From: a virus
Lineage: Duplodnaviria; Heunggongvirae; Uroviricota; Caudoviricetes
Strand: one strand, 5' to 3'
DNA: 28,946 bases
Virus record (IMG/VR): IMGVR_UViG_2617270968_000004
This document shows positions 1 to 25,964 of this stretch, in pieces. Below the pieces are notes generated by a model that searched no databases, was not told the origin of the DNA, and saw only the letters and a program-made list of their open reading frames with translations. Position 1 is the stretch's first letter. Every line of letters starts with the position of its first letter. A program made the translations under genes and the position numbers.

Positions 1-124
1 CCTTTGATGAAAGCGTGATCCGCGCCGCTTCAGCCAGCCATTCTGGTTGTGTTATCAGACGCAGCAGCCGTTGAATCCGTAGGGACGGATCGGTGACTGC
101 CCATGTGGCAAGCTTGCGTTGCAT
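1..124 (-). CDS. Intron-encoded reverse transcriptase/maturase, N-terminal fragment (runs off window)
   Basis: Minus-strand ATG at 124 opens a frame through position 1; the ...ITLSSKG motif precedes the RT domain in group II intron proteins. Family recognised by pattern only. Confidence 0.5.
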   Translation of the reverse strand, partial: MQRKLATWAVTDPSLRIQRLLRLITQPEWLAEAARITLSSK

Positions 125-795
125 TTCGCTGATTATCAAAGGTCTTCACCTCGTTAGGTCAGTTAATTCACGTCGCAAACACATTCAAACTGCTTCCCTT
201 CGCCATGTAATGGGCTTTCCCCATCGCGGACTACTACGGAAGCTCCGCCAGCCAGCGCGTCATCGGAGCCATGCCCCCTTAACATCCGTCGCTGACCTTC
301 CCCGGTTTACCTGCCTGGACTCAGGCATACTGAGGAGGCTGCCCGTCGCACTCTTTATCCTTGCTTGCCGCAAGTTGGCAGAAGTCAGCAACGCAAGCGT
401 GATAGACGCTGCTGCCCCGGTGTTTCGCATACATGTCAAAACACCTTCGACCGGCAGTGCTTACGTATCACTGCCAGTTCCTCCTGCACGGCCTGTCAGA
501 TCACGTAGGCCGTGGTGACGTTTTCAACCCACAGAGGCGGATTAACGGGTTCATGTTCTTCAGCCTTTCAGTACTTAACCTTGAGGATCATCTTGGCTTA
601 GTGATCTCGCCTCAATCCCCGTTGTCAGCGGGTTACATCACCCTGCGGGCATGCCGCAGGTCACTGCCGCTCAGGTTCTCCACCGTCACACCCGGTGGGA
701 TTGTTGGGTTTCTCATCGTGAGTTACCGGTTCAATATTCCAGACAGACTCGCGGTTCATTTAAGCATCCATGCCCGCCCTGAACTCCGGGCACAC
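1..795 (-). mobile_element. Group II intron, 5' portion (ribozyme domains plus start of the intron-encoded protein); continues beyond window start
   Basis: On the minus strand the IS629 orfB frame breaks after the FTY codons at 796 and the inserted sequence begins GTGTGCCCGGAG (GUGYG group II 5' consensus). About 670 nt further an ORF starts (ATG at 124..122, minus) reading MQRKLATWAVTDPSLRIQRLLRLITQPEWLAEAARITLSSKG, typical of the N-terminal region of bacterial group II intron reverse transcriptase/maturases. Confidence 0.6.
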
Positions 796-1213
796 CGTAA
801 GTAAAATCAGCCACCCACAGCTGGTCAGGTCGTTCTGCCACGAACTGACGGTTTACGCGGTCGCCTGCGGCAACGGCTTTCCGGCTGATGGTCGTACGGA
901 CCTTTTTACCCCGGAGAACACCGGCAAGTCCCATAACCGCCATGAGACGTGCCACAGTGCATCTGGCCACTCTGATACCTTCCCGTAACAACTGACGCCA
1001 GACTTTACGCACACCGTATACCTTGTGATTTTCATCGTATACGCGCTGTATCTCTTTCTTCAGCCAGTCATCGCGCTGCGCACGGGCACTGCGTTTATCC
1101 GGATGATGTCGCTGTTGCTGACAGTGGTAATACGTTGACGGGGCAATATGCAGTTCGCTGCATAGCGGTCCGACCCCGTACAGCTTACGCAGCTTATCCA
1201 GCAGTGGCATCAT
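796..1213 (-). pseudogene. IS3-family transposase OrfB, N-terminal part truncated by intron insertion
   Basis: [32 protein letters not shown]...WVADFTY matches IS629 OrfB up to FTY, then diverges into intron sequence (track ORF 731..1213). Confidence 0.75.
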
Positions 1214-1536
1214 TTTTTCCAGAGGCGGTCGAACTCCGCCTTCGCAAAATAAGCGGAAGCCTGGCGAAGGATATCGTTACTGCGGCGCAGTTCACGATTT
1301 TCACGTTCCAGCTCTTTCAGACGCTGACGTTCAGCGGTGGTGAGCCCTCCATCACCGCCCCCGGTATCCCGCTCATGCTGGCGAACCCAGACACGCAGAG
1401 TCTCCGGCGTACAGCCAATCTTTGGAGCAATGGAACAAATTGTCGCCCATTGTGAGTCATATTCGCTCTGACTTTCCAGAACCATACGGACTGCCCGTTG
1501 ACGGACTTCGGGGGAAAAACGAGTATTTTTAGTCAT
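1210..1536 (-). CDS. IS3-family transposase OrfA (IS629-type)
   Basis: 108-aa [25 protein letters not shown]... with helix-turn-helix and leucine-zipper-like C-terminus, characteristic of IS629/IS1203 OrfA. Confidence 0.85.
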
Positions 1537-1590
1537 CCTGTTTACCTCTTTCTCAGGAAGTTTAGTCTCCAGGATTCCCGGGGCGGTTCA

Positions 1591-1948: not shown

Positions 1949-2020
1949 AGTCAGCCTGCCAGAAATAGATGATGGTGATTCTACCGCTAGTCATTTGTTG
2001 ATTATTTAACTCAATAAAAG

Positions 2021-2037
2021 AAAATTATTAGTGCAAT
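2021..2037 (-). promoter_or_regulatory. C1 operator-like site (ATTGCACTAATAATTTT, 15/17 to consensus)
   Basis: Reverse complement of 2021..2037 matches the P1 C1 operator consensus ATTGCTCTAATAAATTT with 2 mismatches; lies in the AT-rich divergent intergenic region. Confidence 0.45.
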
Positions 2038-2094
2038 TTTGATTGTGAAATGTATCATTCTGCCCTTAAGTAGGTTCTTCACGAGGAAACAAAA

Positions 2095-2340
2095 TTGGCA
2101 GAACGTGTTGATGATGCAGAGCTGAGCATGAATCAGTTAGAAGCTCTCAAAGACATGGCCATCGATAACATCAGAAAGCAGGCACAGGTCGTGAGCCAGG
2201 TATTTACAGGGAAGTGTCGTTACTGCAATGAATCGATTGAATCAGGCATTTATTGTGACGCTGAATGTGCGCAATGGCACAGGGAAGAGCAGGCTGCAAA
2301 ACAGCGTAAATATAGCATGCGACCGGCAGGATTTGACTGA
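2095..2340 (+). CDS. TraR/DksA-family C4 zinc-finger protein
   Basis: Small protein with C-terminal CxxC...CxxxC (CRYCNESIESGIYCDAEC); TTG start at 2095 with GAGGA upstream; alternative ATG at 2128. Confidence 0.5.
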   Translation: MAERVDDAELSMNQLEALKDMAIDNIRKQAQVVSQVFTGKCRYCNESIESGIYCDAECAQWHREEQAAKQRKYSMRPAGFD

Positions 2341-2342
2341 TT

Positions 2343-2921
2343 ATGTTGCGCTTTACTGAGGAAGAGTTTCAGGCTTTTAGTGAGCGTCGAAATAAGGGGC
2401 GGTCCAGGCCAAAAACCAAAAAGGATCCATTCTTATCGCTTGCGCCGGTAAAAGAAGTTTCTCCACATGCGAAGGCACTTGCAGCACTGGCAAAGAACCC
2501 CGACCTGCGCGACGGAAATTGCGAGCACTTCGAGCAGGTTTTCATTTTTGATTACTTCGAACGCAAGCACCCTGACATCTATGAGCTGTTGCATGCAACG
2601 CCTAACGGAGGGAAACGTTCAAAAGCAACCGCCGGGAAAATGAAGGCTGAAGGGCAGAAAAAAGGTTATCCGGACATGAGTCTCGATAAAGCATGCGGTA
2701 TTTATCACGGCATGCGAATTGAGCTTAAAGAACCAAATGGTAAAGCCCCGACGAAAGAGCAGATCGCCTGGATGCGCAGGCTTAGAGAGGAAGGTTACTA
2801 CGTCGTTCTTGCGTATGGTGCAGAACAAGCGATAACCGCCATCCTGGAATACATGAGCCTTAAAAAGGGTGAGGCTATTGAGCATGTATTGAACGGTGAC
2901 AAGTGGTTGTACGCTACGTGA
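2343..2921 (+). CDS. VRR-NUC domain nuclease-like protein
   Basis: 192 aa; C-terminal half carries the PD-(D/E)xK-type VRR-NUC signature (GYPDMSL...GMRIELK); start abuts the upstream stop. Confidence 0.55.
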   Translation: MLRFTEEEFQAFSERRNKGRSRPKTKKDPFLSLAPVKEVSPHAKALAALAKNPDLRDGNCEHFEQVFIFDYFERKHPDIYELLHATPNGGKRSKATAGKMKAEGQKKGYPDMSLDKACGIYHGMRIELKEPNGKAPTKEQIAWMRRLREEGYYVVLAYGAEQAITAILEYMSLKKGEAIEHVLNGDKWLYAT

Positions 2922-3117
2922 AATAATAAATTAATTAGTGCATGTGTGCTCTTTGATATAGCGCACATTAACATCGGGAGAATAATCGTGTCATCCAAGG
3001 CTAATTATGAATCGCTGGCATCGATCATGCCGCGTAATGAACAGGAAGCAGATGCTGTAGTGGACCCGGTAATCGCTGAAATGAATGCTCGCCTGGAGGC
3101 TGAATTTGCAGCTGAGA

Positions 3118-3747
3118 ATGAACATACCACCCAGGGCGACTAGGACTGTTTTTTGTGTCGGTAGCGGTCCGTCACTCACTCGTGAGGACTGTGCTGCTAT
3201 AGAAAAAACTGGCTGTTCAATCATCGCGGTTAACAATTCCTGGCAGATGTTCGATGACATTTATGCCTTATACGCCGGTGATTTGTCATGGTGGAAGCAA
3301 TACGGATCCACCATACCGGGAGGGAGATTCCGCAAAGTGACAGCCAACCTGGCGGCGGCGAAATCATTTTCGTTGGAGTACAGGCGATATTGTGGACCGG
3401 CTGAAGGGGTTAATAGCGGCGCGCAGGCTATCAGTCTGGCGGCTGAATCAGGGGCTGAAGTAGTTGTATTAGTCGGCTATGACTGTTCTCTGCAAAACGG
3501 CCTTCATTGGCATGGAGCACACCCTCAAGCCCTACGGAATCCAACGCAGGTGTCTATTTCAAAATGGCAACAGCAGTTCCTGGATACCCGCAAAAAACAC
3601 GCAGATTTACATATTTTGAATGCAAGTAGGAGCAGTGCAATTCAATGTTTCCCAAGAATAAATTTAGAGGCAGTGATCGCGTTATTATCGTCGGCAGTGG
3701 CCCAAGCGCCGCAAACTTTGTTGCGCCGCGCGGAGTGCCGATTATAG
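3118..3747 (+). CDS. Hypothetical protein with GxGPS Rossmann-like motif (paralog 1)
   Basis: MNIPPRATRTVFCVGSGPSLT...IIAVNNSW; motif spacing mirrors the downstream paralog. The track ORF begins at 3085; the in-frame ATG at 3118 gives a size equal to paralog 2. Confidence 0.5.
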   Translation: MNIPPRATRTVFCVGSGPSLTREDCAAIEKTGCSIIAVNNSWQMFDDIYALYAGDLSWWKQYGSTIPGGRFRKVTANLAAAKSFSLEYRRYCGPAEGVNSGAQAISLAAESGAEVVVLVGYDCSLQNGLHWHGAHPQALRNPTQVSISKWQQQFLDTRKKHADLHILNASRSSAIQCFPRINLEAVIALLSSAVAQAPQTLLRRAECRL

Positions 3748-4271
3748 CGGTCAATGGGGCCATCGACTGGCTGAACCGCGCTTCTTATTTTTTCACACTT
3801 GATCCATCGCCAGACAATATGCGGCGCGTTGGTCGTGGCCGCCGTCGCCGTGGTGTTTGTTATTGCATGGCACTACCCGATGTTAAAGAACGTGAAGTCA
3901 GAGACGGCGTTCTGTGCTTCCGTCGTGTGGCTGAACGTGGCATGGAGCCAAAAAATACGAATTCTCCCGAGTGGTGGGCGTGGCGCTGGTCCGCACATTT
4001 CGGACTTTGCGAAGATGAGAATGAAATTGCCAGCGGCAATAGTGCATATGGCGCTCTGAACCTGGCTTTCCATATCGGATTCAAACATGTCGCCCTGGTG
4101 GGCGTTGACGCTACACAAGAACCACGCGTTCACTCCGGCGGCACGCCAAAAAATCTAAGTCACCTGCCTTTGTTATTCCAGTCTGCGCGTGAACAGATTG
4201 ACGTTGTTTCATGCGGGAGAATGGGAGGTATTCCGCAGATGACTCTTAAAGAATGGCTGAAGAATACATGA
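3645..4271 (+). CDS. Hypothetical protein with GxGPS Rossmann-like motif (paralog 2)
   Basis: [25 protein letters not shown]...IIAVNGA; AGGAG upstream; stop overlaps the next start (ATGA). Confidence 0.55.
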
Positions 4272-4945
4272 TGGCACCCACAATTTATCACCGTATCGAC
4301 GGTACCAAATACAGGAATGTCTGGGTTGTTGGTGATCTGCATGGTTGCTACACCAGACTGATGTCCGAACTCCATCGTGTGGATTTTGACCCGGCGCAGG
4401 ATTTACTGATATCGGTCGGCGACCTTATCGATCGCGGTACTGAAAATGTCGAATGTCTGGAACTATTGCAGATGCCCTGGTTCAGAGCGGTCATGGGTAA
4501 CCATGAGCGGCTGATGATTGATGCGTTAAGTCCAGATGGCAACGTGAATAACTGGCTAATGAATGGCGGACAATGGTTCTTCATGCTGGACACTGAGCAG
4601 GAAATATTAGCCTGGGCGCTGGTGGAGTTGGTAAGACGACTGCCCTATATCATTGAGTTGAACACCGGGCAAGAAACTATCGTTATAGCCCATGCCGACT
4701 ATCCGGATAATGAATACCAATTCGGTAAGGAGGTGCCGCTTTTCAACGTTGTCTGGGCGCGCGAGCGTATCAGTGATTCGATGGATGATATTGGTGGCGA
4801 AATTTCGGGCGCAGATCGTTTTATCTTTGGTCACACTCCGGTGAAAAGCCCGAAGACATTCTGGAATCAGCAGTATATCGACACTGGTGCCGTATTTTGC
4901 GGAAACCTGACATTGATGAAAGTGAAAGGTGATGGTGCAGCATGA
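4253..4945 (+). CDS. Lambda-type serine/threonine protein phosphatase (calcineurin-like metallophosphoesterase)
   Basis: [16 protein letters not shown] and GNHE motifs; alternative start ATG at 4268 overlaps the upstream stop. Confidence 0.8.
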
Positions 4946-5643
4946 AGATTGCTTTAGTTTTTCGCTCTGGTGGTGACTATAACGCTTCCGATGTGCAGTG
5001 GCTGGTTAATCAACTGCCAAAAGGCTATGAAATTATTTGCCTGACAGACCTGAAGCGTTTACATGTACCTGGCGTCAAAGTTGTCCCATTGATCAACCAG
5101 TGGCAAAAGTGCCGTGGCTGGTGGGCGAAAATAGAGTTGTTCCGACCGGATATAACAGATGATCTGTTCTATCTGGATTTGGACACAGTTATTGCCGGTG
5201 ATATACGCCCAATCCTTGAGAATCCACCAACCAGCTTCACCATGCTTAGGGATTTTTACCATCCACAATATCGTGGTAGCGGTGCCCTGTGGATACCAAA
5301 TAGTGTAAAAGCGCATATCTGGAGTGCATTCTGGCAAGATCCGGAAGGTTGGGTTGCTCGTTGTGTTACTACTGAATGCTGGGGTGAGCAGGGGTTTTTG
5401 CGGAAGGTTATGGGTGATGATACACCAGCATTTCAGGATCTGTATCCGGGATGGTTTGTAAGTTACAAGGCCGATGTTGTGGAACCTGGTTCGAAATATG
5501 CGAGCGCGCGTTACTCCAGGGGGAATGGGGCATTACCAAAAGACTGCCGAATAATCTTTTTCCACGGCAAACCGCGACCTCGCGAAGTGTCAGAGGATTG
5601 GCTTCCCCTTATCAGCTCGTTTTTTGAGCGAGAATCAGAATAA
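4942..5643 (+). CDS. Putative glycosyltransferase-like protein (DxD motif)
   Basis: 233 aa with YLDLDTVI (DxD-like) in an N-terminal Rossmann-like region; ATGA overlap with the phosphatase stop. Confidence 0.4.
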
Positions 5644-5644
5644 T

Positions 5645-5661
5645 ATTGCTCTAATAATTCC
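5645..5661 (+). promoter_or_regulatory. C1 operator (ATTGCTCTAATAATTCC)
   Basis: 14/17 match to the C1 operator consensus, with the first 13 bp exact. Confidence 0.55.
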
Positions 5662-5670
5662 ATATTTTTA

Positions 5671-5699
5671 AAACGTGATGTACACTTATCACGTTTTTT
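5671..5699 (+). terminator. Rho-independent terminator
   Basis: 9-bp stem AAACGTGAT/ATCACGTTT with 8-nt loop followed by a T-run, directly after the glycosyltransferase-like gene. Confidence 0.6.
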
Positions 5700-5710
5700 A
5701 TTAGAGCAAT
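5694..5710 (-). promoter_or_regulatory. C1 operator (minus orientation)
   Basis: Reverse complement reads ATTGCTCTAATAAAAAA. Confidence 0.5.
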
Positions 5711-5724
5711 CTACAGGGTGCACT

Positions 5725-5943
5725 ATGTGGCCATTCCGACGGAAATATCACTACTGGCTGATCGCCTTTGTTACGCCGACCGGCGGTATCAGGCATGTCA
5801 TCACCAGGTATCGCAACAAGAGACTCACCTTAGCCAGAATTTTACAGGCTGCCATAGGTGAGGGACTGGATACAAATTGCGTAGTCCTTCCTCCTTCATA
5901 CTTAGGAAAAATGACCGAAGCACAAGCTAATACGGAACTTTGA
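5725..5943 (+). CDS. Hypothetical small protein
   Basis: 72-aa ORF ending 1 bp before the next gene; no recognisable motif, weak RBS. Confidence 0.3.
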   Translation: MWPFRRKYHYWLIAFVTPTGGIRHVITRYRNKRLTLARILQAAIGEGLDTNCVVLPPSYLGKMTEAQANTEL

Positions 5944-5944
5944 A

Positions 5945-7207
5945 ATGAGCACTTCAGCACAAAACCAATCAATCGAAAATGTATCTATCCCTGATGTCCT
6001 GAATGCCGGTATCCCGGCCATTATCCAGAACATCCGGGCCGCGCAACGCCGCGTTAGTTGTGATGACCTCACAGCACGTTTTTTTGATAATGCGGTTCAG
6101 TCAGCGGAGATGCTTCACGCACAGCTTATTGATGTTTATAACGCAGAAGCTGATAGCCATAACTCCCTGGTAGATGCAGCTGAAAATATGCAGTTGGATC
6201 TCGGTCTGAAGGGTAAAGAAATTGAAGAGCTTCAGCTGCAAATTGAACATTTGAAACGCCAGCAACAGGACGCGATCGACGATGCGACGCATGACGCCAA
6301 CCAGCGTGCTGATAATGCCGAACGTATAAGCATTGAGCTGGAAACAAAACTCAATGAAGTGACCGCGATGGTTGAACTGCGGAACTCACAGATTTCAACG
6401 CTAAAATCTCAATATAAAGAGATCATGAAACTTGATCCTTTTAACCTTGAGAAACGCTATAACAAAGCCAAAAGTGAGCGACAGGAACTGCGTAAGCAGG
6501 TCGCCGACCTTAACCAACAGCTCAAAAAGACTATTAAAGATGCAAGTGAGGCGCGCGTGGCATTTGCTAATAAAAAAGCAGAGGTTACCGCGCTGGTTAA
6601 TGAGAATGCCAAATTTGCGACGCTCAAGAAGGAAATGTATGGCATTACTGAGCGACGTTTCCCTGCAAGCAAACTTCATCCGACGTTAGGGCAAATCTCC
6701 TTCTTCCCGCGCCTCCTGGCTTATGGGATCTCATCGCCTAAAGAGTTCAATAACGAGCGTCCTTATATCGTTTCTAAGCTGGACTTTGCTTATCAGTTCT
6801 GCTGCGACATGGGCTATGCCATTGATATCCGAATCAACGAATGGTTGATGCCAAACTTCCAGCCGTTGGCCATTTTCCGCGAGTTCCAGCCGGAAGGTTG
6901 GGTAGAGTTCTTCCATGAATTGATCTGTAAAGAGATGGAAAGCCGCCGCCCGGAACTGGTCCGTCGAGTTGAGTGGGCGCAAGAGGTTATGTTGGCAGAG
7001 GCAGAGCTGCCGTTCGAACCGGAATTTATTGATGATCTGGCAGCTAAAGGGCTGCATACCCTGTTTGATGTGGTTACCCGCCGTCATGAGCAGTTGGTTG
7101 TCGAATTGGGTTTAGAGGAAACAGCGGCAAGAAGACTTCTCGATGTTTGCTATGCACGTAGCGATGCATGGGAAAAAGAGAACGGCGGCACTATTTACGT
7201 TCGCTGA
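5945..7207 (+). CDS. Hypothetical protein with long N-terminal coiled-coil region
   Basis: 420 aa; residues about 70-230 are heptad-rich (E/K/Q/L), C-terminal globular part unrecognised. Confidence 0.6.
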   Translation: MSTSAQNQSIENVSIPDVLNAGIPAIIQNIRAAQRRVSCDDLTARFFDNAVQSAEMLHAQLIDVYNAEADSHNSLVDAAENMQLDLGLKGKEIEELQLQIEHLKRQQQDAIDDATHDANQRADNAERISIELETKLNEVTAMVELRNSQISTLKSQYKEIMKLDPFNLEKRYNKAKSERQELRKQVADLNQQLKKTIKDASEARVAFANKKAEVTALVNENAKFATLKKEMYGITERRFPASKLHPTLGQISFFPRLLAYGISSPKEFNNERPYIVSKLDFAYQFCCDMGYAIDIRINEWLMPNFQPLAIFREFQPEGWVEFFHELICKEMESRRPELVRRVEWAQEVMLAEAELPFEPEFIDDLAAKGLHTLFDVVTRRHEQLVVELGLEETAARRLLDVCYARSDAWEKENGGTIYVR

Positions 7208-7279
7208 CAGTTACAGTGTCACTTTTGATGCTGGTGGAGTGCGCCCACCAGCATTTTTTTCGTCCAATGAGGAGGGCAT

Positions 7280-7786
7280 TTGAGTATTTTCAATAAACAC
7301 GCACACCAGGAACGTCCGTATATCGTCATAGTTGATATTGATGGAACAATATCAGAGGCAACTGAAGACAGACTGCATTTGCTTCCGCCACCAGGTAAAG
7401 GTGCATTAACAAAGGACTGGAACGAGTTTAATCTCGCCTGTGACACTGATACTCCCATAACTCCAGTTATTGATATTGTGCGCCAGTTATTTAACGTTTA
7501 CACGGTCTGGTTTGTAACCGGGCGCTGTGAGATCGCAAGGGATAAAACACGAGCCTGGCTGCGGAAGTACGTAACAAACGGGGCTGAGCCTTTGCTATCT
7601 ATGCGTCCTGCCACCGATGACAGAAATGACGGCCCAGCAAAGATTGATCTCCTTAAGAAAATTGGTCTAAGTAAAATCGCGTTCGCGCTGGAAGATAAGA
7701 TTGAAGTGGCGCGTGTTTTCAGGAGGCACGGCGTGCTTACGTTAATGGTCAGGGAGTATGAAAACGCGCTTCTCCATCAACAATAA
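7280..7786 (+). CDS. HAD-superfamily phosphatase-like protein (polynucleotide 3'-phosphatase-like; P1 pap-like by position)
   Basis: N-terminal DIDGT motif (HAD motif I) in a 168-aa protein. Confidence 0.55.
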   Translation: MSIFNKHAHQERPYIVIVDIDGTISEATEDRLHLLPPPGKGALTKDWNEFNLACDTDTPITPVIDIVRQLFNVYTVWFVTGRCEIARDKTRAWLRKYVTNGAEPLLSMRPATDDRNDGPAKIDLLKKIGLSKIAFALEDKIEVARVFRRHGVLTLMVREYENALLHQQ

Positions 7787-7802
7787 TTGCTCTAATAAAT
7801 AT
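7786..7802 (+). promoter_or_regulatory. C1 operator (ATTGCTCTAATAAATAT)
   Basis: 16/17 match to consensus, overlapping the pap-like stop codon. Confidence 0.6.
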
Positions 7803-7825
7803 TTATTTTTAAAGCAGAGAAAGTG

Positions 7826-7856
7826 AAAATAAAAACATGCCGCAAGGCGCGGCATG
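7826..7856 (-). terminator. Rho-independent terminator for minus-strand (hsdR) transcription
   Basis: 8-bp stem CATGCCGC/GCGGCATG with 5-nt loop; on the minus strand it is followed by a U-rich run (plus-strand A-run 7826..7835). Confidence 0.55.
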
Positions 7857-7884
7857 TATCCAATCAATCACAGGAGCTGAAAAT

Positions 7885-7971
7885 ATGAACACGGCATTCA
7901 AAATCATTATGGCCGCGATCTATTTCTGGCTGTTCTCTATCACTTTTGGCGATATCGTCGCACATGGGTAA
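7885..7971 (+). CDS. Small hydrophobic peptide (28 aa), candidate membrane peptide
   Basis: MNTAFKIIMAAIYFWLFSITFGDIVAHG with strong SD (CAGGAG, 8-nt spacing); lies within the 3' untranslated region of convergent hsdR. Confidence 0.3.
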   Translation: MNTAFKIIMAAIYFWLFSITFGDIVAHG

Positions 7972-8050
7972 GGGGAGTATATTAGCCATTTGGAACCCCA
8001 CGGTCTCTTGCGGGTTTAATTAAGAACCCGCAAGAAAAACACGAATTGGG

Positions 8051-11000
8051 CTATATTTTTCCGCCTACGCCTTTAAACTTCTCAATAAACGAGACGATTT
8101 TCTGGAAAACTGCCTGTTTTTTCGTTTTATATTGCGGATTTAACGGACTAAGTTTTGGTAATGTTTCGTTTAATTCTGTGCCATTTTCGGTGGCATATTC
8201 GCGTTTTAAAGACGTGCGAATATAGCGTTTTGCTGCATCTTCATTGAGATTTTCTTCTTTTATCAATGCTTCTGCTTCACGTTGCTGTTCGCGTTGAGCA
8301 AACGTAAAGAATGCGTCAATGATGCTGGCTTTGTCCGGTAAATCATCCAGGTTCGTTTGCTGAATAAAATCGACCACCAGGCCCTCTTTAGCACGGTTTC
8401 CCAGGCTTGAACGAATTAAGCGTTTGACCTCTTCGATCATTTCGCCCTTGCCTTTATTTTGTCTGTTGTGTTCGAAAATCAGTCCAAGGATATAATCCAG
8501 GTTTATTTCCTGAGACTTCAGCAAATCGACCTCAAAAACTACGTCATCCCAGTCAGTGGTTGATTTCTCTTTTTTCTCAGCTTCTTTCTCACGGCGCTGC
8601 CAGTCGCGAATATCGTTATAGGCAGAACGATAATCCTGAATCTTGCGATCAGCAGGGAGACGAATTGTTTGCAATTCAGCGAACTTTTCATCATCCACAT
8701 AATGTTCTGCTTTGAATTTTTCTACCGCAACAGGATCGCTAAGATCGATTTGTTGCAGGGCTTTTAGCGTGGCAAATTCATCATAGTTTTGCAGGATGTT
8801 CTCGGCACGCAGGTATTCGCCAAACAGTTTAACGAAGTCTTTCTTCTCTTTTTCACTTTCAATACTGGTAGGGTCAGGGAACCGTTGTTCCAGTTCTGAA
8901 ACTACTGTCATGAAGCCGCGTTTAGCTTCACCTGTAGCAGCATCAGTAAAGCCTTCCATATACTCTGTATAACTCTTTTCTAACACCACATTTTTGGTGT
9001 TTTTGTCACCAAACAGCGTTATGGCATCAATAGTTGAGCGTTCCAGATCCCGGAAAGTGACGATATTACCGAAGGTTTTAGTGGCGTCATAAATGCGGTT
9101 GGTGCGGGAAAATGCCTGCATCAGGCCGTGATAACGTAAGTTTTTATCGACGAATAGCGTGTTCAATGTTGGAGCATCGAAGCCGGTTAAGAACATCCCC
9201 ACGACAATTAGCAGATCGATATCCTGATTTTTAACCCGCTGGGCTAAATCACGATAGTAGTTCTGAAAACCGTTACTGTCGGTGCTAAAGTTAGTTTTAA
9301 AATGGCTGTTATATTCACGAATTGCAGCGTCCAGAAACTCTTTAGCACTGCTGTCCATTGCGCTGGTATCAAAAGTTTCATCGGAAATTTCACCAATGGC
9401 ATTTTGTTCTTCATTGGCGGCAAAGGAGAAGATTGTCGCAATACGCAGCGGTTTATAGGTAGCCGATTTATTAGCGGCTTCTTCTTGTAACCGTTTAAAC
9501 GTCGCATAATAGGCTTTCGCGGCATCCACGCTGCTCACTGCCAACATAGCATTAAAACCTTTTGAGCCAGGGAAGGTACGGTGGGTTTTCTGGCGGAAAT
9601 TATTCAGAATATATTGCGTGATTTCCTGAATACGCATGGGATGAAGAAACGCCTGCTGATTTTCAGCCGCACTCAGTTTTTTCTCGTCAGTTTCTGTCTC
9701 TAAAGACTTAAACTGTGGCCGCACATCGTTGTAGTCCACCTTGAATTTGAGCACTTTTTCGTCACGAATCGCATCGGTAATTACATACGAATGCAATTCA
9801 CGACCAAATACGCTGGCGGTTGTTTCTGAGCCTAAGGCGTTTTCCGGGAAAATAGGGGTGCCGGTAAAACCAAACTGATAATAGCGTTTGAATTTCTTCT
9901 TCAGGTTTTTCTGCGCTTCTCCAAACTGGCTGCGGTGGCATTCATCAAATATAAACACCACTTGCTGATTATATACAGGCAGATCGCTTTCTGCTTTCAT
10001 CAGGTTATTGAGTTTCTGAATAGTAGTGACGATAATTTTGTTATCGTCCTTATCCAGATTTCGTTTAAGGCCTGCGGTATTTTCCGAGCCGTTGACGCTG
10101 TCTGGCGAAAAACGCTGATATTCCTTCATGGTCTGGTAATCGAGGTCTTTCCTGTCGACCACAAAGAAGACTTTATCAATAAAGTCCAGCTCTGTTGCCA
10201 GACGCGCGGCTTTAAAGCTGGTGAGGGTTTTACCAGAACCGGTAGTGTGCCAGATATACCCACCGCTTTCCGGTTTTGACCAGTTCTTCGCTGTAAAGGA
10301 ACTCTTAATTTTCCACAGAATGCGCTCGGTGGCGGCAATCTGGTACGGTCGCATTACCAGTAGTGTCTGACTGCTGTCAAAAACGCTGTAGTTCACCAGA
10401 ACATTAAGCAGAGTATGTTTCTGGAAAAAGGTGGCGGTAAAGTCTTTGAGGTCTTTAATCAGCGTATTGTCTGATTTCGCCCAGTTCATGGTGAAGTCAA
10501 AACTGTTTTTATCGCGCTTTGTCGTGTTGGCAAAATAACGGGTATCAGTGCCGTTGGAAATGACGAACAGCTGCAGATACTTAAACAGGGAATTTTCGCT
10601 GTTAAAACTCTCTTTACTGTAACGATGTATCTGGTTGAAAGCCTCACGAATCGCCACGCCGCGTTTTTTCAGTTCGATTTGTACCAGCGGTAAGCCATTA
10701 ACCAGGATAGTTACGTCATAACGGTTAGCGTGAGAACCCGCCTGTTCAAACTGCTGGATAATCTGCACCTTATTGCGCATGAGATTCTTTTTATCTATCA
10801 AATAGATGTTCTCAAGACGCTCGTCATCAAAAATAAAGTCGCAAATATAGTCGATATGGATTTTACGGGTCTTATCCAGAATGCCATCGCTCGGGTTATC
10901 CAGATACTGCTCCGTGAAACGCCGCCACTCGCTGTCATTAAACACCACACCATTGAGGTTCTGAAGCTGTTCCCGAACATTGGCCAGCATCGCCGACTGT

Positions 11001-11167
11001 GATTTTACGGATATAAATTCATAGCCCTGATTCCGTAGGTCCTGTATCAGTTCGCGTTCCAGGTCCGATTCGCTCTGGTAGCTGTCGCCTGTTGGCTCAG
11101 CTTTGATGTACTTATCAAGAACGATAAAGTTATTGGATTCAGCAATGGTGTGTGTCTGATGAGTCAT
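8051..11167 (-). CDS. hsdR: Type I restriction enzyme R subunit (HsdR), type IC EcoR124-like
   Basis: 1038 aa; N-terminal PD-ExK nuclease motif ([17 protein letters not shown]), helicase motifs TGSGKT and DECH; size and N-terminus match the EcoR124 family as I recall it. Confidence 0.92.
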
Positions 11168-11288
11168 AGCGCATCCTTTGTGCCGTCTGGCAAGGGCCGG
11201 AAGGGGGGTAATGGTGACTTCCGGCGCGTAAAAAATAGTCTATATACTGACCGGGTGTTAAGGTGGTCCGATCGGTAGCAATGATCAA

Positions 11289-12503
11289 TTAATTACTGAC
11301 AGTTTCAGGTTTCGGGAAACTGAACAGTAAATCACGATAGTACTCGTATTGTTTCTGGCGCAACTCGATTTCACGCGGAAGACCTTCGGTGATGGAGTTA
11401 GTCAGTGTGTCGAATTTGTCGAGTATTTCGACAATTCGTTGTTGTTCATTGATGTTAGGAACCGGAATTTTAAATGAAAATAATTTTTTACTGTCAATAG
11501 AAGCTACGGACCCTCCTGTCTTTTTCGCTGCTCGCAGAATATCACTCCCCCTAGACCCAATCATATGATAAATATATTTAACCAAGATGTTTTCATGAGG
11601 AATGACTGCTTTCATATCTTGATTGAGCGTAGCAGGTACTTTTATTAATGCACTTGGTAATACTTTATCCAATATGCTTGAGCGAACAACGATTGCAATC
11701 GAGTTTGCTGGAATCAGTTTTGTTGACGATTGTAGAACAGCCTCCTCAGTTATATAGTCTTCCGAAGAGTCTACAAGTGTTCGGCCCATATCTTTCGGGG
11801 AAATCCATGGAATGCTTCCATTTTCCCAAAATTCAATTTTATTTTTTGATGGTGTCCCTCCCCCATACCATTTTCCGATCTCTCCCAAAGTCTTCCACTC
11901 AACCTCACCCTCTTTAAAACTCAACAACTGGTCGCGATAGTAGTTGTACTGTTTTTTACGCATGTTAAGCTCAGCGGTAAGCTCAGCGGTAAGTGCAGTA
12001 AATTTATCCAGAATCCGAACGATTTCAGACTGGATGGCAAGGGATTTTTCCGGATTATCCGGGCAGGGGATTGGGATTTTTTTTTGAGAATAATTACTAA
12101 TCCATTGGCGTTTATGGTCTCCCTCTGCGAATTCACTTGGTAATGTATTGAGCCAATAGTAAACATATTTCAGTAAGGTTTTATTATCATCACATGATGT
12201 AACCATTTTCATGGCCGATGATTTTGCCTTAAAGTCAAAATCCACCCATTTATTAGCGGTGGTGAAATCATCAAAAATTATTACAGGTGCCTTTGATGCC
12301 TGATAAATACCATGAGTCTCATTTGTGTATCCAAGAATAAATGTTTTTCCGGCAGTAAGAACCGGTATGGTATATGTGTCGTGATAATCTTTTGCTTTTA
12401 CCAAATACTTTGTTGGCTGTTCATATTTGGTTATTTCCCCCAATGGCAACCACTCAACTTCAACCCCATCCAGCAATTTTTCCAGATAACTCATCTCGCT
12501 CAT
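11289..12503 (-). CDS. hsdS: Type I restriction-modification specificity subunit (HsdS)
   Basis: 404 aa with two target-recognition domains separated by conserved regions ...[26 protein letters not shown] and ...[19 protein letters not shown]; 4-bp overlap with hsdM. Confidence 0.9.
11967..11990 (-). repeat. Tandem 12-bp repeat (2 copies) encoding TAEL-TAEL in the HsdS central conserved region
   Basis: Plus-strand AAGCTCAGCGGT x2; in type IC systems the copy number of this repeat sets the spacer length of the recognition site. Confidence 0.8.
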
Positions 12504-14062
12504 TTCTGCACCTCGCAGCCTTCAATTTCAGCCACAATCGCATCAATATCTTTGCGCAACTGGTCGATTTTGCTGACCGTGGTTTTCAGCTCAGCATTCA
12601 GCTCAGCAATATCGATAATTTCGCGGTTATCTTTCGCTTCCACATAGCTGCTCACCGACAGGTTATAGTCATTAGCAACAACGGTCTCAAACGCGACAGA
12701 TTTCGCCAGATGAGCAACATCTTCCTTGCTGGCAAATACCTGCATAATCTGTTCGATATGGGCATCGGTCAGGATATTGTTGTTAGTCTCTTTTTTGAAC
12801 AGTTCGCTGGCGTCAATAAACTGAACGTTGGTATCCGTTTTATGTTTGGACAGAACCAGAATGTTTACTGCAATGGTGGTGCCAAAGAACAGGTTCGGTG
12901 CCAGTGAAATTACGGTTTCGACATAGTTATTGTCAATCAGATACTGACGGATTTTCTGCTCCGCGCCGCCACGGTAAAAAATACCCGGGAAGCAAACAAT
13001 CGCAGCACGACCTTTGGCAGAAAGATAGTTCAGCGCATGTAATACAAACGCAAAGTCAGCTTTGGATTTGGGGGCCAGAACGCCAGCCGGGGCAAAACGT
13101 TCATCGTTAATCAGCGTCGGGTCATCGCTGCCAATCCATTTCACCGAATACGGCGGGTTAGAAACGATGGCATCAAACGGTTTTTCATCTCTGAAGTGTG
13201 GCTCAGTCAGTGTATTACCCAGCTTGATATCAAACTTGTCGTAGTTGATGTTGTGCAAAAACATGTTCATACGTGCCAGGTTATAGGTTGTATGGTTGAT
13301 TTCCTGACCAAAAAAGCCTTCTTCGATGATATGGTCATCAAACTGTTTTTTAGCCTGCAACAACAGCGAACCGGATCCTGCTGCCGGGTCGTAGATTTTG
13401 TTAACGTGGGTCTGCCCGTGCATAGCCAGTTGTGCAATCAGCTTAGAGACGTGTTGCGGTGTAAAGAACTCGCCGCCTGACTTACCGGCATTCGCCGCAT
13501 AGTTAGAAATCAGGAACTCATAGGCGTCACCGAACAGGTCAATCTGATGTTCGTTGAAGTCACCAAGTTTTAACCCTTCAACCCCTTTCAGAACCGCAGC
13601 CAGGCGGGCATTTTTATCTTTAACGGTGTTACCCAGGCGGTTACTGGTAGTATCGAAATCAGCAAACAAACCTTTGATGTCAGCTTCTGAAGGATAACCG
13701 TAAGCAGAACTTTCGATAGCAACGAAGATGCTGTTTAAATCTGCATTCAGTCTGTCATTAGTATTTGCTTTCGCAGCTACGTTGCAGAAAAGCTGACTGG
13801 GGTAGATGAAGTAGCCTTTAGTTTTGATGGCATCGTCTTTAATGTCATCAGTAATTACGCTGTCATCCAGTTTCGCATAACAGATACTGTCATCACCGGC
13901 TTCAATATAACTGGAAAAATTTTCGCTGATAAAACGGTAGAAAAGTGCGCCCAGAACGTATTGCTTAAAATCCCATCCATCGACCGAACCCCTGACATCG
14001 TTAGCAATTTGCCAGATTTGACGATGAAGCTCTGCACGTTGTTGAATACTTGTCATTTTCAT
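12500..14062 (-). CDS. hsdM: Type I restriction-modification N6-adenine DNA methyltransferase subunit (HsdM)
   Basis: 520 aa; AdoMet-binding [10 protein letters not shown] and catalytic NPPY motifs. Confidence 0.92.
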
Positions 14063-18270: not shown

Positions 18271-18395
18271 TGTTTTTTAACTACCGATGTTACATTGAGC
18301 CTGACCTCTTGCGCCTTGAGGCATTTTCGGTTTATGCTTATCAGGCACCTCATTAAAACGGGTGCCGGGATTGGCCTCCCGCTTAAGTCTAAGGC

Positions 18396-18425
18396 GATAC
18401 AGACGCCGCTCGCGTCTTTTTTTTG
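18396..18425 (+). terminator. Rho-independent terminator
   Basis: Stem AGACGC/GCGTCT with 5-nt loop followed by T8 (18418..18425). Confidence 0.6.
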
Positions 18426-18589
18426 TATCGGCGTACACGCACACCTCTACAATGGTGGGCTGTATGGGGCTACCTTCGGGTAGGCTGGTTACCTTGGACG
18501 CCAGTAAGGCCAACTCCGTACAGTCCACCGCCAGCAAGATTGGTCTCTTCTGCGGTGGTTACATACCAACGTCTAAGGAGGCTGCCAAT

Positions 18590-18811
18590 ATGGCTACTAT
18601 CCCTATCCCAACTCATCCTGAATTTATCTGGCGCTTTTACTCCTGCCAAAAACGTCACTATCACTTCGTTATTGCACCGACAGAAGATGAGGCCCGCTCT
18701 CAGCTTCCTGACGCCCCATGTATTTTCTCTGCCCGTTTTTCCACTGATTCACGCAATTCTCTCAGTTACTGGTGCCTCCCTGTTAACGCTTCTGCTCAGG
18801 AGGGACTATGA
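18590..18811 (+). CDS. icd: Icd-like small protein (73 aa) translationally coupled to the antirepressor gene
   Basis: ATG 18590 preceded by AAGGAGG; 73 aa, the P1 Icd length as I recall it; stop overlaps the ant start (ATGA). Confidence 0.5.
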   Translation: MATIPIPTHPEFIWRFYSCQKRHYHFVIAPTEDEARSQLPDAPCIFSARFSTDSRNSLSYWCLPVNASAQEGL

Positions 18812-19926
18812 GAACGTCATTAGTCACCCGTGAAGAGATGATCGAGGCAATTGAACAGCACACTGCCTGTATCAGTACCAGGGATATACCAGGCGTTATT
18901 GCCAACTACTTCATGATCACCAAACAACTTTACCGGAGAAAGGACAAGAACGCGGTTCACCGTATCCTGTTGTCTGATATCCGCGAATACCTGCTCGAAC
19001 AGGGTCATCTGAATTACGCAACCGCCGCAGCCGAAGCACGCAAGGAGGCACACAGAATGAAAGCAACTAACGTTAAATCAGAAAAAATTCATGCACCTTC
19101 AGTTCAAGAATCGGAGCTGGTGGTTGTTCAGAATCAGTCTGATGAAATTCCCGTTCTGGAATGGCAGGGAGTGCGTGTAGTGACAACCGAGACTCTTGCT
19201 AGAGGGTATGGGACAGAAACAATCCGTATTCGCCAAAATCATCATGAGAACAAAGTACGCTTTGTTGAAGGGAAGCACTTTTTCAAAGTTGAAGGAGAAT
19301 CATTGCGCGAGTTGAAGCACAGAGTAGCTTTAAACTACTCTGTAAAAATTGCTCGCAATGTTCGCTCACTCACCCTCTGGACAGAACGCGGCGCAGCCCG
19401 CCACGCTAAAATGCTCGAAACCGATCAGGCATGGGCATTCTTTGAAAAACTGGAAGACAGCTACTTCCGACAAAAAGAACAGCAACCGATCGCAATCCCC
19501 CAGACGCTTCCTGAAGCCCTACGCCTGGCTGCCGAACTGGCTGAACAAAAGCAACTTCTGGAACAGAAAGCCCACCAGCTAAATCAGCAGCTGGTGGCCG
19601 CCGCTCCTAAAGTCGATTTTGCCGACCGGGTATCAGTAGCTAAAGGGATCCTGATTGGGAATTTTGCAAAGGTTGTTGGACTTAAACAAAACGCGCTGTT
19701 TGTCTGGTTACGGGAGAACGGCATCCTGATAGCGTCCGGTGGACGTAAAAATGTGCCGTTCCAGCAGTACATCAACGCGGGGTATTTCACGGTGAAAGAA
19801 GTGGTGCTGGATGATGAAGATGGCTACCAGATACGGTTGACGCCTCAATTAACGGGTAAAGGCCAGCAGTGGTTGACGCGTAAACTGCTCGATGCTGGCT
19901 TGTTAAAACCGGTGGCGGCTGAATAA
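18808..19926 (+). CDS. ant: Antirepressor Ant1-like (ORF6N plus KilAC/Ant domains), with in-frame internal Ant2-like start at 19057
   Basis: 372 aa; central VLEWQGVRVVTTETLARGYG... and C-terminal VDFADRVSVAKG...FVWLRENGIL antirepressor-type regions; internal in-frame ATG 19057 has its own AAGGAGG, giving a 290-aa product. Confidence 0.6.
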   Translation: MRTSLVTREEMIEAIEQHTACISTRDIPGVIANYFMITKQLYRRKDKNAVHRILLSDIREYLLEQGHLNYATAAAEARKEAHRMKATNVKSEKIHAPSVQESELVVVQNQSDEIPVLEWQGVRVVTTETLARGYGTETIRIRQNHHENKVRFVEGKHFFKVEGESLRELKHRVALNYSVKIARNVRSLTLWTERGAARHAKMLETDQAWAFFEKLEDSYFRQKEQQPIAIPQTLPEALRLAAELAEQKQLLEQKAHQLNQQLVAAAPKVDFADRVSVAKGILIGNFAKVVGLKQNALFVWLRENGILIASGGRKNVPFQQYINAGYFTVKEVVLDDEDGYQIRLTPQLTGKGQQWLTRKLLDAGLLKPVAAE

Positions 19927-21963: not shown

Positions 21964-22995
21964 ATGTCCAATTTACTGACCGTACACCAAAATTTGCCTG
22001 CATTACCGGTCGATGCAACGAGTGATGAGGTTCGCAAGAACCTGATGGACATGTTCAGGGATCGCCAGGCGTTTTCTGAGCATACCTGGAAAATGCTTCT
22101 GTCCGTTTGCCGGTCGTGGGCGGCATGGTGCAAGTTGAATAACCGGAAATGGTTTCCCGCAGAACCTGAAGATGTTCGCGATTATCTTCTATATCTTCAG
22201 GCGCGCGGTCTGGCAGTAAAAACTATCCAGCAACATTTGGGCCAGCTAAACATGCTTCATCGTCGGTCCGGGCTGCCACGACCAAGTGACAGCAATGCTG
22301 TTTCACTGGTCATGCGACGGATCCGAAAAGAAAACGTTGATGCCGGTGAGCGTGCAAAACAGGCGCTGGCGTTCGAACGCACTGATTTCGACCTGGTTCG
22401 TTCACTCATGGAAAATAGTGAGCGCTGCCAGGATATACGTAATCTGGCATTTCTGGGGATTGCTTATAACACCCTGTTACGTATAGCCGAAATTTCCAGG
22501 ATCAGGGTTAAAGATATCTCACGTACTGACGGTGGGAGAATGTTAATCCATATTGGCAGAACGAAAACGCTGGTTAGCACCGCTGGTGTAGAGAAGGCAC
22601 TTAGCCTAGGGGTAACTAAACTGGTTGAGCGATGGATTTCTGTCTCTGGTGTAGCTGATGATCCGAATAACTACCTGTTTTGCCGCGTCAGAAAAAATGG
22701 TGTTGCCGCGCCATCATCCACCAGCCAGCTATCAACTCGCGCCCTGGAAGGGATTTTTGAAGCAACTCATCGATTGATTTACGGCGCTAAGGATGACTCT
22801 GGTCAGAGATACCTGGCCTGGTCTGGACACAGTGCCCGTGTCGGAGCCGCGCGAGATATGGCCCGCGCCGGAGTTTCAATACCGGAGATCATGCAAGCTG
22901 GTGGCTGGACCAACGTAAATATTGTCATGAACTATATCCGTAACCTGGATAGTGAAACAGGGGCAATGGTGCGCCTGCTGGAAGATGGCGATTAG
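21964..22995 (+). CDS. cre: Cre site-specific tyrosine recombinase
   Basis: 343 aa MSNLLTVHQNLPALPVDATSDEVRKNLMDMFRDRQAFSEHTWKMLLSVCRSWAAW...; catalytic-region motifs (HSARVGAARDM, GGWTNVNIVMNY) and an adjacent loxP. Confidence 0.97.
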   Translation: MSNLLTVHQNLPALPVDATSDEVRKNLMDMFRDRQAFSEHTWKMLLSVCRSWAAWCKLNNRKWFPAEPEDVRDYLLYLQARGLAVKTIQQHLGQLNMLHRRSGLPRPSDSNAVSLVMRRIRKENVDAGERAKQALAFERTDFDLVRSLMENSERCQDIRNLAFLGIAYNTLLRIAEISRIRVKDISRTDGGRMLIHIGRTKTLVSTAGVEKALSLGVTKLVERWISVSGVADDPNNYLFCRVRKNGVAAPSSTSQLSTRALEGIFEATHRLIYGAKDDSGQRYLAWSGHSARVGAARDMARAGVSIPEIMQAGGWTNVNIVMNYIRNLDSETGAMVRLLEDGD

Positions 22996-25741: not shown

Positions 25742-25964
25742 GCTCCCACCCTCTATTTTTAAATTGGTTGGCTTTAGCAGATAAAGTGCCCTTTATATTT
25801 ACAGGGGTTACACACTATGTCAATTTATTTATCTGTAGTGAAATTGATAAAAATTCAATAATAAAAAAACAGCAACTGTGACACAAATCAATATTTTTAT
25901 TTTTTGCACAACTTCTTGATTTCAGTGCTGCTGTATCTCTATTCTTGTTCAAAGCCTCTTTAGA

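Follow-up and report, generated by a model that had tools for sequence, protein, structure and literature searches.

The window analyzed here is the whole 28,946-nucleotide (nt) stretch of IMG/VR virus record IMGVR_UViG_2617270968_000004 (Caudoviricetes), and the subject of this report is a block of four coupled genes at positions 3118-5643. By sequence match the source DNA is a P1-like phage-plasmid: the 6 kb around the block (window 2000-8000) matches phages P1 and P7, as well as more than 1000 P1-like plasmids of Enterobacteriaceae, at ~98% identity. Because the P1 GenBank annotation (AF234172), transferred with a constant offset of 1001 nt, maps onto the window, the block can be equated with the already known and annotated genes pmgO, pmgP, ppp and pmgQ of this classical phage, preceded by pmgN and a C1 repressor operator (Table 1). 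A first-pass annotation made from the letters alone did not recognize the P1 pmgN-pmgQ operon; it described two paralogous GxGPS proteins, a lambda-type Ser/Thr phosphatase and a glycosyltransferase-like protein that together suggested a modification pathway. The observation itself is confirmed here and the pathway idea is partly supported, with PmgO, PmgP and PmgQ probably acting as a glycosylation cassette. GenBank describes the genes as having a "putative morphogenetic function" in P1 (since 2004) and a role in "head morphogenesis" in P7; the pmg and hdm labels rest purely on map position.

Operon Layout

All four open reading frames (ORFs) were found at the positions first described, and the ATGA junctions pmgP/ppp (4268-4271) and ppp/pmgQ (4942-4945) are both present. 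The 3' end of pmgN overlaps the start of pmgO; pmgN matches PHROG 2350, labelled function unknown, and was not found beside the other genes outside P1-like elements in the loci examined. For ppp, the ATGA-coupled start is favored over the one annotated in P1 because the alignment to lambda phosphatase begins at residue 6. The hairpin at the operon end is only a putative terminator, since it was read from the sequence and missed by the terminator scan; this consensus promoter/terminator scan recovered neither the hairpin nor the annotated PpmgN. Downstream of the operon end lie pmgR, a head-completion gene, and then pmgS.

Table 1. Features of the pmgN-pmgQ operon, in window coordinates (aa, amino acids).
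Feature	Position	Strand	Description
Predicted sigma-70 promoter PpmgN	-35 2889-2894 (TTGAAC), -10 2910-2915	+	AF234172 annotation
C1 repressor operator Oppp/Op83	2928-2944	minus	AF234172 annotation, sequence read
pmgN (hdmA)	2946..3143	+	65 aa from GTG 2946 (P7 start) or 51 aa from ATG 2988 (P1, 2988-3143)
pmgO (hdmB)	3118..3747	+	209 aa; predicted Maf/GT42/MptE-fold transferase; upstream ATG 3085 gives 220 aa, as annotated in P1 (3085-3747)
pmgP (hdmC)	3645..4271	+	208 aa; second, diverged predicted Maf/GT42/MptE-fold transferase
ppp	4268..4945	+	225 aa from ATGA-coupled start; lambda-type PPP-family Ser/Thr phosphatase; P1 annotates start 4253
pmgQ (hdmD)	4942..5643	+	233 aa; putative GT8, glycogenin-like glycosyltransferase
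Operon end, C1 operators and hairpin	5645..5710	+	Operators from P1 annotation, hairpin read directly
C1 operator OpmgRa	5645-5661		ATTGCTCTAATAATTCC; P1 annotation
C1 operator OpmgRb	5694-5710		P1 annotation
Hairpin with T-run, flanked by OpmgRa and OpmgRb	5670-5699		AAAACGTGAT-gtacactt-ATCACGTTTT-TT; putative terminator

Predicted Enzymes of the Block

PmgO and PmgP were aligned with hhalign using profiles built from 43 and 38 homologs, respectively, which gave a probability of 97.6% (E 2.6e-12, 154 columns); pairwise BLAST is barely significant (E 0.003). Fold searches rank identical structures for the two proteins, further supporting paralogy, and on these comparisons they are genuine but ancient paralogs. 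Both carry the GSGPS and IIAVN motifs, as first described, and the "same spacing" then ascribed to them is only approximate because 15 residues intervene in PmgO and 11 in PmgP, a difference that BLASTP bridges with a 4-residue gap. The AlphaFold models are of high confidence (predicted local distance difference test 90.6 for PmgO and 94.7 for PmgP) and predict a sialyltransferase/Maf fold for both, with Maf as the top structural match, in the modified GT-A/Rossmann arrangement common to Maf, Cst-II and MptE. Searches of the PDB with the single sequences and the separate family profiles returned noise only. A merged PmgO+PmgP profile returned eight Cst-II sequences first and Maf next, in an alignment that spans the GxGPSL loop and the (N/T)SG...GxD segment and matches them to GNGPS and TSG...GID of Cst-II.

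Within the family alignments the GxGPS nucleotide-binding loop and the (N/T)-S-G ... G-x-D segment are invariant or nearly so. The motifs are GSGPS, AVNN, AGD55, NS100G, GYD122CS and HWHG in PmgO and GSGPS, AVNG, LD53PS, GNS133A, GVD155AT and H173 in PmgP, which carries an insertion of ~35 aa relative to PmgO. Residues D55, S100 and D122 of PmgO and D53, S133 and D155 of PmgP are invariant within their families, with a Ser-Asp spacing of 22 in both. Mutagenesis of CbMaf showed that an acid (D272), a Ser (S334) and an Asp/Asn (D357) are needed, with a Ser-Asp spacing of 23 (bioRxiv 10.1101/2020.06.03.131540). Because this putative set of acid, Ser and Asp is invariant and nearly Maf-like in spacing, both paralogs look catalytically competent. 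Synonymous versus non-synonymous codon differences among P1-like loci number 217:20 for pmgO, 267:81 for pmgP, 331:158 for ppp and 615:278 for pmgQ (counts that are not phylogenetically independent), and purifying selection on the operon genes is evident.

PmgQ, called a DxD transferase in the first-pass annotation, aligns to GT8 structures through its DxD. A profile of 30 homologs matched the Skp1 alpha-galactosyltransferase 6mw5 over residues 93-238 (E 1.4e-6) and pneumococcal GlyE 5gvv (E 1.3e-3); the single sequence reached a GT8 structure at E 0.07. Invariant in the 30 homologs are K63 (WWAKIELF), the DxD motif D79-L80-D81 and H208-G-x-P-R-P, and these Lys, DxD and His segments align to TKL, YIDADAIV and HYSSNPKP of 6mw5, corresponding to the Lys, DxD and His of glycogenin-type enzymes. 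The sole family match of PmgQ is PHROG 1962 ("glycosyltransferase"); no family of Pfam (including Glyco_transf_8) or NCBIfam was matched at E<=0.01.

The lambda-type phosphatase call for Ppp holds: residues 6-224 align end to end with residues 3-221 of lambda phosphatase 1G5B (E 6.2e-94), the motifs GDLHG, GDLIDRG and GNHE are all present, Metallophos PF00149 is matched at 59 bits (cut-off 21.5), and so is PHROG 246. Ppp shares all metal-binding motifs with 1G5B, and its known counterparts are the lambda Ser/Thr phosphatase NinI and E. coli PrpA/PrpB. The lambda gene lies in the nin region without glycosyltransferase neighbors, whereas in P1 ppp sits between pmgP and pmgQ and is coupled to each by ATGA.

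The original P1/P7 annotation as structural or assembly factors has the GenBank notes and the requirement of the neighboring pmgR for head completion in its favor. Each of the four proteins, however, has an enzyme fold and conserved catalytic residues, deletion or knockdown causes no plaque defect and the pmg names derive from map position only, so this explanation, largely refuted by the knockout data, is next to untenable.

The Cassette Beyond P1

Scans of loci with hidden Markov models (HMMs) found the pmgO-pmgP-pmgQ trio without ppp in the P1-like Cronobacter phage JK004, a Pantoea P1-like plasmid, the lambdoid Citrobacter phage phiNP, the 111-kb coliphage EP_H11, the jumbo Xanthomonas phage XacN1, a Pseudomonas prophage, an Alloalcanivorax prophage, a Sinomicrobium (Bacteroidota) contig and a metagenomic phage. 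Several more prophages hold only the pmgP-pmgQ pair, and wherever a host is named, it is a diderm. Searching 1.84 billion representative proteins with a profile gave 606 PmgP-type clusters at 50% identity (244 at E<=1e-10). The genome-collection scan gave 18 loci only, the derived peptide patterns being very strict, and the first viral-contig scan yielded only near-identical P1 copies.

Natural fusions join PmgO to PmgP (P0278, in-frame), which supports joint action of the two, and also occur as PmgP+PmgQ, PmgQ+PmgP, PmgQ+PmgP+methyltransferase and methyltransferase+PmgP. The gap between pmgP and pmgQ is a variable slot, occupied by ppp in P1 and a Salmonella P1-like element, by a GT4-like protein in EP_H11 and by class-I methyltransferases in two prophages; in XacN1 a TylF-type methyltransferase is fused to PmgQ. 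Elsewhere the cassette is flanked by an FkbM methyltransferase, by a cupin and a methyltransferase, or by a fourth protein with a DxD-like WLDVDS motif and no Pfam match. All-against-all BLAST of the cassette neighbors revealed no conserved fourth gene or small specificity factor, and no flagellar or neuB/pseI-type (nonulosonic-acid synthesis) genes were present in the loci examined. In XacN1 (locus L088) and the Sinomicrobium contig (L114) the cassette lies directly beside ribonucleotide reductase genes, and in XacN1 two proteins exceeding 1000 aa come next, one with a PKD/Ig-like domain.

The phosphatase, which the first-pass annotation counted as a pathway member, is not found in JK004, the Pantoea P1-like plasmid or any non-P1 copy of the cassette, and by this distribution ppp is a lineage-specific insertion, a passenger in the variable slot and not a core component. 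The remainder of the pathway idea fares better, with the Maf-fold PmgO/PmgP and the GT8-like PmgQ co-occurring and fusing across many phages. A glycan-building pathway is the most economical account because of this co-occurrence, the fusions and the companions with sugar chemistry, and we consider it very probable that the genes are a glycosylation cassette. A reading as a conserved, mobile Maf-like/GT8 cassette with a variable slot was not found in the literature searched and appears to be new.

The same fold could instead make PmgO and PmgP pyrophosphokinases of the MptE or thiamine pyrophosphokinase type, acting on a small molecule or nucleotide in a metabolic or anti-defense role, with Ppp as the matching phosphatase. 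Their constant partner is a GT8 glycosyltransferase, at times fused to PmgP, the variable partners are glycosyltransferases and methyltransferases of sugar-modifying type, and most copies of the cassette have no phosphatase. Maf is also the top structural match, sequence profiles reach sialyltransferases first, and a late or virion-module position is ill-suited to an early anti-defense role. This alternative is therefore regarded as quite improbable.

The pmgO/pmgP Overlap

The overlap of about 100 bp in another frame, for which a frameshift was initially suspected, measures 103 nt (3645-3747), and pmgP is read in the -1 frame with respect to pmgO. Family HMMs cover almost the full length of both genes, each in its own frame (PmgO to position 184 of 187, PmgP from position 1), and neither gene is truncated. 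The conserved end of PmgO overprints the non-conserved PmgP N-terminus, and the conserved GSGPS loop of PmgP overprints the non-conserved, low-confidence PmgO tail (approximately the last 18 residues, about 3694-3747). The pmgP ATG (3645-3647) straddles the Gln-Cys codons of the PmgO motif IQCF; in P1, JK004, phiNP and EP_H11 it consists of the last base of a pmgO codon plus the TG of the conserved xCF Cys codon. What differs among relatives is how far PmgO reads past this ATG: the overlap from there to the pmgO stop is 4 nt in XacN1 (as annotated), ~12 nt in the Pseudomonas prophage, ~37 nt in EP_H11, ~70 nt in JK004 and ~100 nt in phiNP and P1. On this pattern the overlap is judged genuine.

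Two other explanations of the overlap were rejected. A sequencing or assembly frameshift that split one gene conflicts with the end-to-end HMM coverage of both genes, and pmgO and pmgP are intact in 84 of 84 P1-like loci. A slippery heptamer of the X_XXY_YYZ form, A_AAT_TTA, lies within the overlap at 3660-3666 in the pmgO frame; programmed -1 frameshifting to a PmgO-PmgP fusion was dismissed because the heptamer is absent from JK004, phiNP, EP_H11 and other relatives, and it is considered a chance match (by rough estimate, the chance of such a heptamer in the overlap is ~5%).

Deposited annotations miss pmgO in JK004 (L094) and phiNP (L089) and pmgP in EP_H11 (L087), and phage D3 encodes a full PmgO (L118, 5762-6406) that is annotated as the N-terminally truncated orf7. 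Gene callers often skip one of the overlapped genes of the pair, a systematic annotation gap.

Proposed Donor and Acceptor

Maf/GT42 enzymes normally use CMP (cytidine monophosphate)-activated ulosonic acids. E. coli K-12 makes no CMP-sialic acid, and its sole CMP-activated sugar is that of 3-deoxy-D-manno-oct-2-ulosonic acid (Kdo). A precedent for the mechanism comes from Maf enzymes, which attach sugars to protein Ser/Thr in the cytoplasm, ahead of export, and which moved Kdo from host CMP-Kdo onto Ser/Thr when expressed in E. coli BL21 (bioRxiv 10.1101/2020.06.03.131540). The P1-like plasmid of Pantoea sp. CCBC3-3-1 (CP034366) carries kdsB, which encodes CMP-Kdo synthetase, 2.3 kb downstream of pmgQ and in place of the P1 gene pap (L097, 8654-9418; 254 bits against an equivalog cut-off of 155); this linkage is suggestive of a Kdo donor. 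CMP-Kdo as the donor is nonetheless doubtful.

The genomic positions of the cassette, typically within late or virion gene clusters, point to a surface-destined protein as the acceptor. In four unrelated HK97-type prophages it directly follows the major capsid gene, or the capsid and cement/adaptor genes, and the head-closure and tail genes come after it; the full pmgO of phage D3 occupies the equivalent post-capsid position. In other prophages the cassette adjoins terminase, lies between the lysis and terminase genes, or is inside or next to the lysis cassette. In P1 the operon is under C1 repression, and the next gene downstream, pmgR, is required for head completion (PMC9024508). In Pseudescherichia chromosomes (L116, 2236-18532; likewise L102-L106), homologs of pmgO, pmgP and pmgQ are found outside prophages as separate transcription units, scattered among the genes for an inverse autotransporter (IAT_beta plus seven Big_1 domains) and for four further Big_1 proteins, an island that may be an adhesin glycosylation locus. 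In Serratia a pmgO gene abuts two Big_1 proteins. We place a virion or surface protein as the acceptor at slightly short of an even chance.

Three capsids encoded next to the cassette (L004, 6179-7375; L108, 4841-6214; L118, 4459-5646) have Ser-rich ends (GSLSES, GNLSGAS and GSLTAS, respectively), and the 62% identical capsid of the cassette-less Vibrio phage P2 (L119, 3956-5143) ends in GELKTA. Such tails are a possible lead to acceptor sites, drawn from few cases.

The strongest rival is that the cassette remodels the lipopolysaccharide (LPS) core, or another lipid-linked glycan, of the host at the inner membrane during infection, because textbook bacterial GT42 and GT8 enzymes modify lipo-oligosaccharide; the nearest characterized GT42 enzymes (Cst-I/II) and many GT8 enzymes (LgtC, WaaI/J/O/R) modify lipo-oligosaccharide or the LPS outer core. 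Such remodeling could mask the P1 receptor, sparing progeny from loss on debris, or keep superinfecting phages out. The LPS core is what P1 adsorbs to, all named hosts are diderms with LPS, CMP-Kdo and kdsB are part of LPS metabolism, and some prophages carry the cassette in or next to the lysis genes. LPS conversion genes are, however, normally expressed by the prophage, whereas the P1 operon is repressed by C1 in the lysogen and the cassette belongs to late operons elsewhere. A conserved membrane-association segment is lacking in PmgO, PmgP and PmgQ alike (the C-terminal helix of PmgO differs in length and is missing from other lineages), and placement between capsid and head-tail connector genes, or among Big_1 adhesins, better fits protein acceptors. 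LPS remodeling is thus considered unlikely.

Glycosylation of phage DNA, a base hypermodification against restriction, was also weighed. DNA is the classic target of phage glycosyltransferases (bioRxiv 10.1101/2023.12.21.572611), and two large phages have the cassette beside ribonucleotide reductase genes. No locus examined encodes a hydroxymethylase or other base-activating enzyme, and pmg knockouts, including pmgO-pmgQ, leave antirestriction activity unchanged (PMC9024508). A DNA target is accordingly held to be very improbable. It would also have to fit two further points: to our knowledge no Maf-fold enzyme acts on DNA, and P1 DNA is routinely cut by ordinary restriction enzymes.

Proposed Mechanism

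The best overall explanation, to which we assign a rough probability of 0.5, is a glycan-building cassette that would act during lytic growth, most likely on a virion protein. The C1-repressed pmgN-pmgO-pmgP-ppp-pmgQ operon would be switched on as the prophage enters lytic growth, with a portable three-enzyme glycosylation cassette as its core. PmgO and PmgP would be two diverged, minimal (~200 aa) catalytic domains of the Maf/GT42 sialyltransferase fold, and PmgQ a retaining GT8 DxD hexosyltransferase with a uridine diphosphate (UDP)-hexose as donor. The overlapping, translationally coupled genes may deliver the three enzymes in fixed proportion, and these probably form a cytoplasmic complex that builds a short glycan on a protein acceptor. 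The likeliest acceptor would be a virion surface protein (capsid, decoration or tail subunit), modified before or during assembly, and the outcome would be a dispensable glycan coat. For the glycan, the most parsimonious guess would be Kdo and a hexose because CMP-Kdo is the only CMP-activated ulosonic acid in K-12-type hosts. Ppp, the ortholog of lambda phosphatase, would ride as a passenger in the variable accessory slot. The fully specified version, in which the minimal Maf-like pair and the GT8 enzyme O-glycosylate virion proteins (in some bacteria, Big_1 adhesins) with a Kdo-containing glycan from host CMP-Kdo, is improbable in all its details.

The closest known relatives of PmgO and PmgP are the Maf flagellin nonulosonic-acid O-glycosyltransferases (PF01973) of M. 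magneticum (5mu5), C. botulinum and G. kaustophilus. Unlike these, PmgO and PmgP are phage-borne, come paired, always have a GT8 partner and lack linked nonulosonic-acid synthesis genes. GT42 enzymes Cst-I and Cst-II of Campylobacter jejuni have no significant full-length sequence similarity to PmgO/PmgP, use lipid-linked glycan acceptors and carry a membrane-association tail; in our reading of its sequence, Cst-II has Asn at the position of the invariant Asp of PmgO/PmgP. Among GT8 enzymes (glycogenin, 6mw5, GlyE 5gvv and the LgtC/LPS core transferases), to which the PmgQ profile aligns over ~150 residues, several elongate protein-bound glycans, as proposed for PmgQ. PmgQ differs from known GT8 enzymes in being shorter and below Pfam/NCBIfam detection, and its family, PHROG 1962, is a separate phage family whose members almost always accompany PmgP.

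For the virion coat proposed for P1, the one established precedent comes from mycobacteriophages Che8 and Myrna, in which phage glycosyltransferases glycosylate capsid and tail-tube subunits and are dispensable for growth, according to the summaries of Freeman et al. 2023 in PMC11256854 and PMC12619734. That system differs in having Actinobacteria as hosts, and PMC11256854 places the Maravista genes near the right genome end, not in the head module.

Several points weigh against a cassette that glycosylates virion proteins. The fold of PmgO and PmgP also houses pyrophosphokinases (MptE, thiamine pyrophosphokinase), and PF01973 (MptE-like) scores 23.4 bits for PmgO and 21.0 bits for PmgP against a gathering threshold of 34.6 bits, so the two are distant relatives and not formal Pfam members; the family is matched at E<0.01 in 34 of 42 relatives, and one PmgP-family fusion protein (P0324) exceeds the threshold with 44.1 bits. 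Maf proteins are ~600 aa long with N- and C-terminal acceptor domains or a GlfM partner, and PmgO and PmgP, at 209 and 208 aa, are without them. The best-known bacterial GT42 and GT8 enzymes act on lipo-oligosaccharide, not protein, and the lysis-terminase interval occupied by some copies is a classic moron site. The kdsB linkage is a single case, with no kdsB in the other pmgOPQ-bearing phages and plasmids examined, and pmgQ has premature stops or a frameshift in 4 of 79 P1-like loci. An HMM built from the Pseudescherichia invasin repeats detected no Big_1-like domain in P1 nt 1-50,000 and ~75,500-87,500 or in this window, nor any convincing match in other phage cassette loci; a weak match in a 104-aa Pantoea protein (E 1.6e-4) was not confirmed by Pfam. 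We found no report of glycosylated P1 virions, and papers on the P1 virion proteome and on capsid cryo-electron microscopy mention no glycans. Single deletions and CRISPR interference knockdowns of pmgO, pmgP, ppp and pmgQ cause no plaque defect (PMC10695390, PMC9024508). The analysis directly shows the identity of the genes, their folds, conserved motifs, co-occurrence, fusions and genomic positions, and purifying selection; the glycosyltransferase activity, the donor, the acceptor and the biological role are all things that we infer.

Other Features of the Window

An IS629 (IS3-family) insertion sequence copy occupies window 1-1560, with orfA at 1210-1536 on the minus strand and an ALIL frameshift pseudoknot at 1139-1255, and is interrupted by a group II intron (ltrA), as judged from identical E. 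coli chromosomal copies. The element directly adjoins the 3' end of P1 tail gene 26 (ORF 1562-1948, 128 aa versus 125 aa in P1), and the prophage may be tail-defective because IS629 parts gene 26 from gene 25. A complete type I restriction-modification system, hsdR (1038 aa), hsdS and hsdM, lies on the minus strand at 8051-14062, where it interrupts the P1 backbone between pap and the pmgT side; its hsdR looks EcoR124-like (type IC), and the P1 annotation itself records R124-like sequence at the pap/pmgT junction. The intervals 18345-19926, 21964-22995 and 25052-26699 hold isrK small RNA, C4 antisense RNA, the antirepressor gene (immI region) and a Cre-like tyrosine recombinase, and low-GC cargo (33-36% GC) in that region encodes an EAL-domain protein and an AraC-family regulator. 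PmgM (window 2343-2921) bears a VRR-NUC nuclease domain, and Pap (window 7280-7786) is a PNKP-type HAD 3'-phosphatase, not an acid phosphatase; pmgM and pap are thus two further "morphogenetic" or otherwise misnamed P1 genes that really encode nucleic-acid enzymes.

Significance

P1 is among the most used phages in genetics, yet its pmg genes have stood under a placeholder label for two decades, and reading them as a glycosylation cassette gives four orphan genes a hypothetical role that is open to direct testing. Minimal Maf-like domains could serve as glyco-engineering tools. If the target is LPS, the genes would constitute a new lytic-phase receptor-masking system. If virions are glycosylated, this would bear on phage stability, adsorption and the use of P1-derived vectors, and on immunogenicity and pharmacokinetics in phage therapy, as has been shown for mycobacteriophages. 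Should the proposal prove true, it would mean that a virion glycan coat, so far unrecognized, is widespread among Gram-negative phages and that proteins naturally undergo Ser/Thr-O-Kdo modification.

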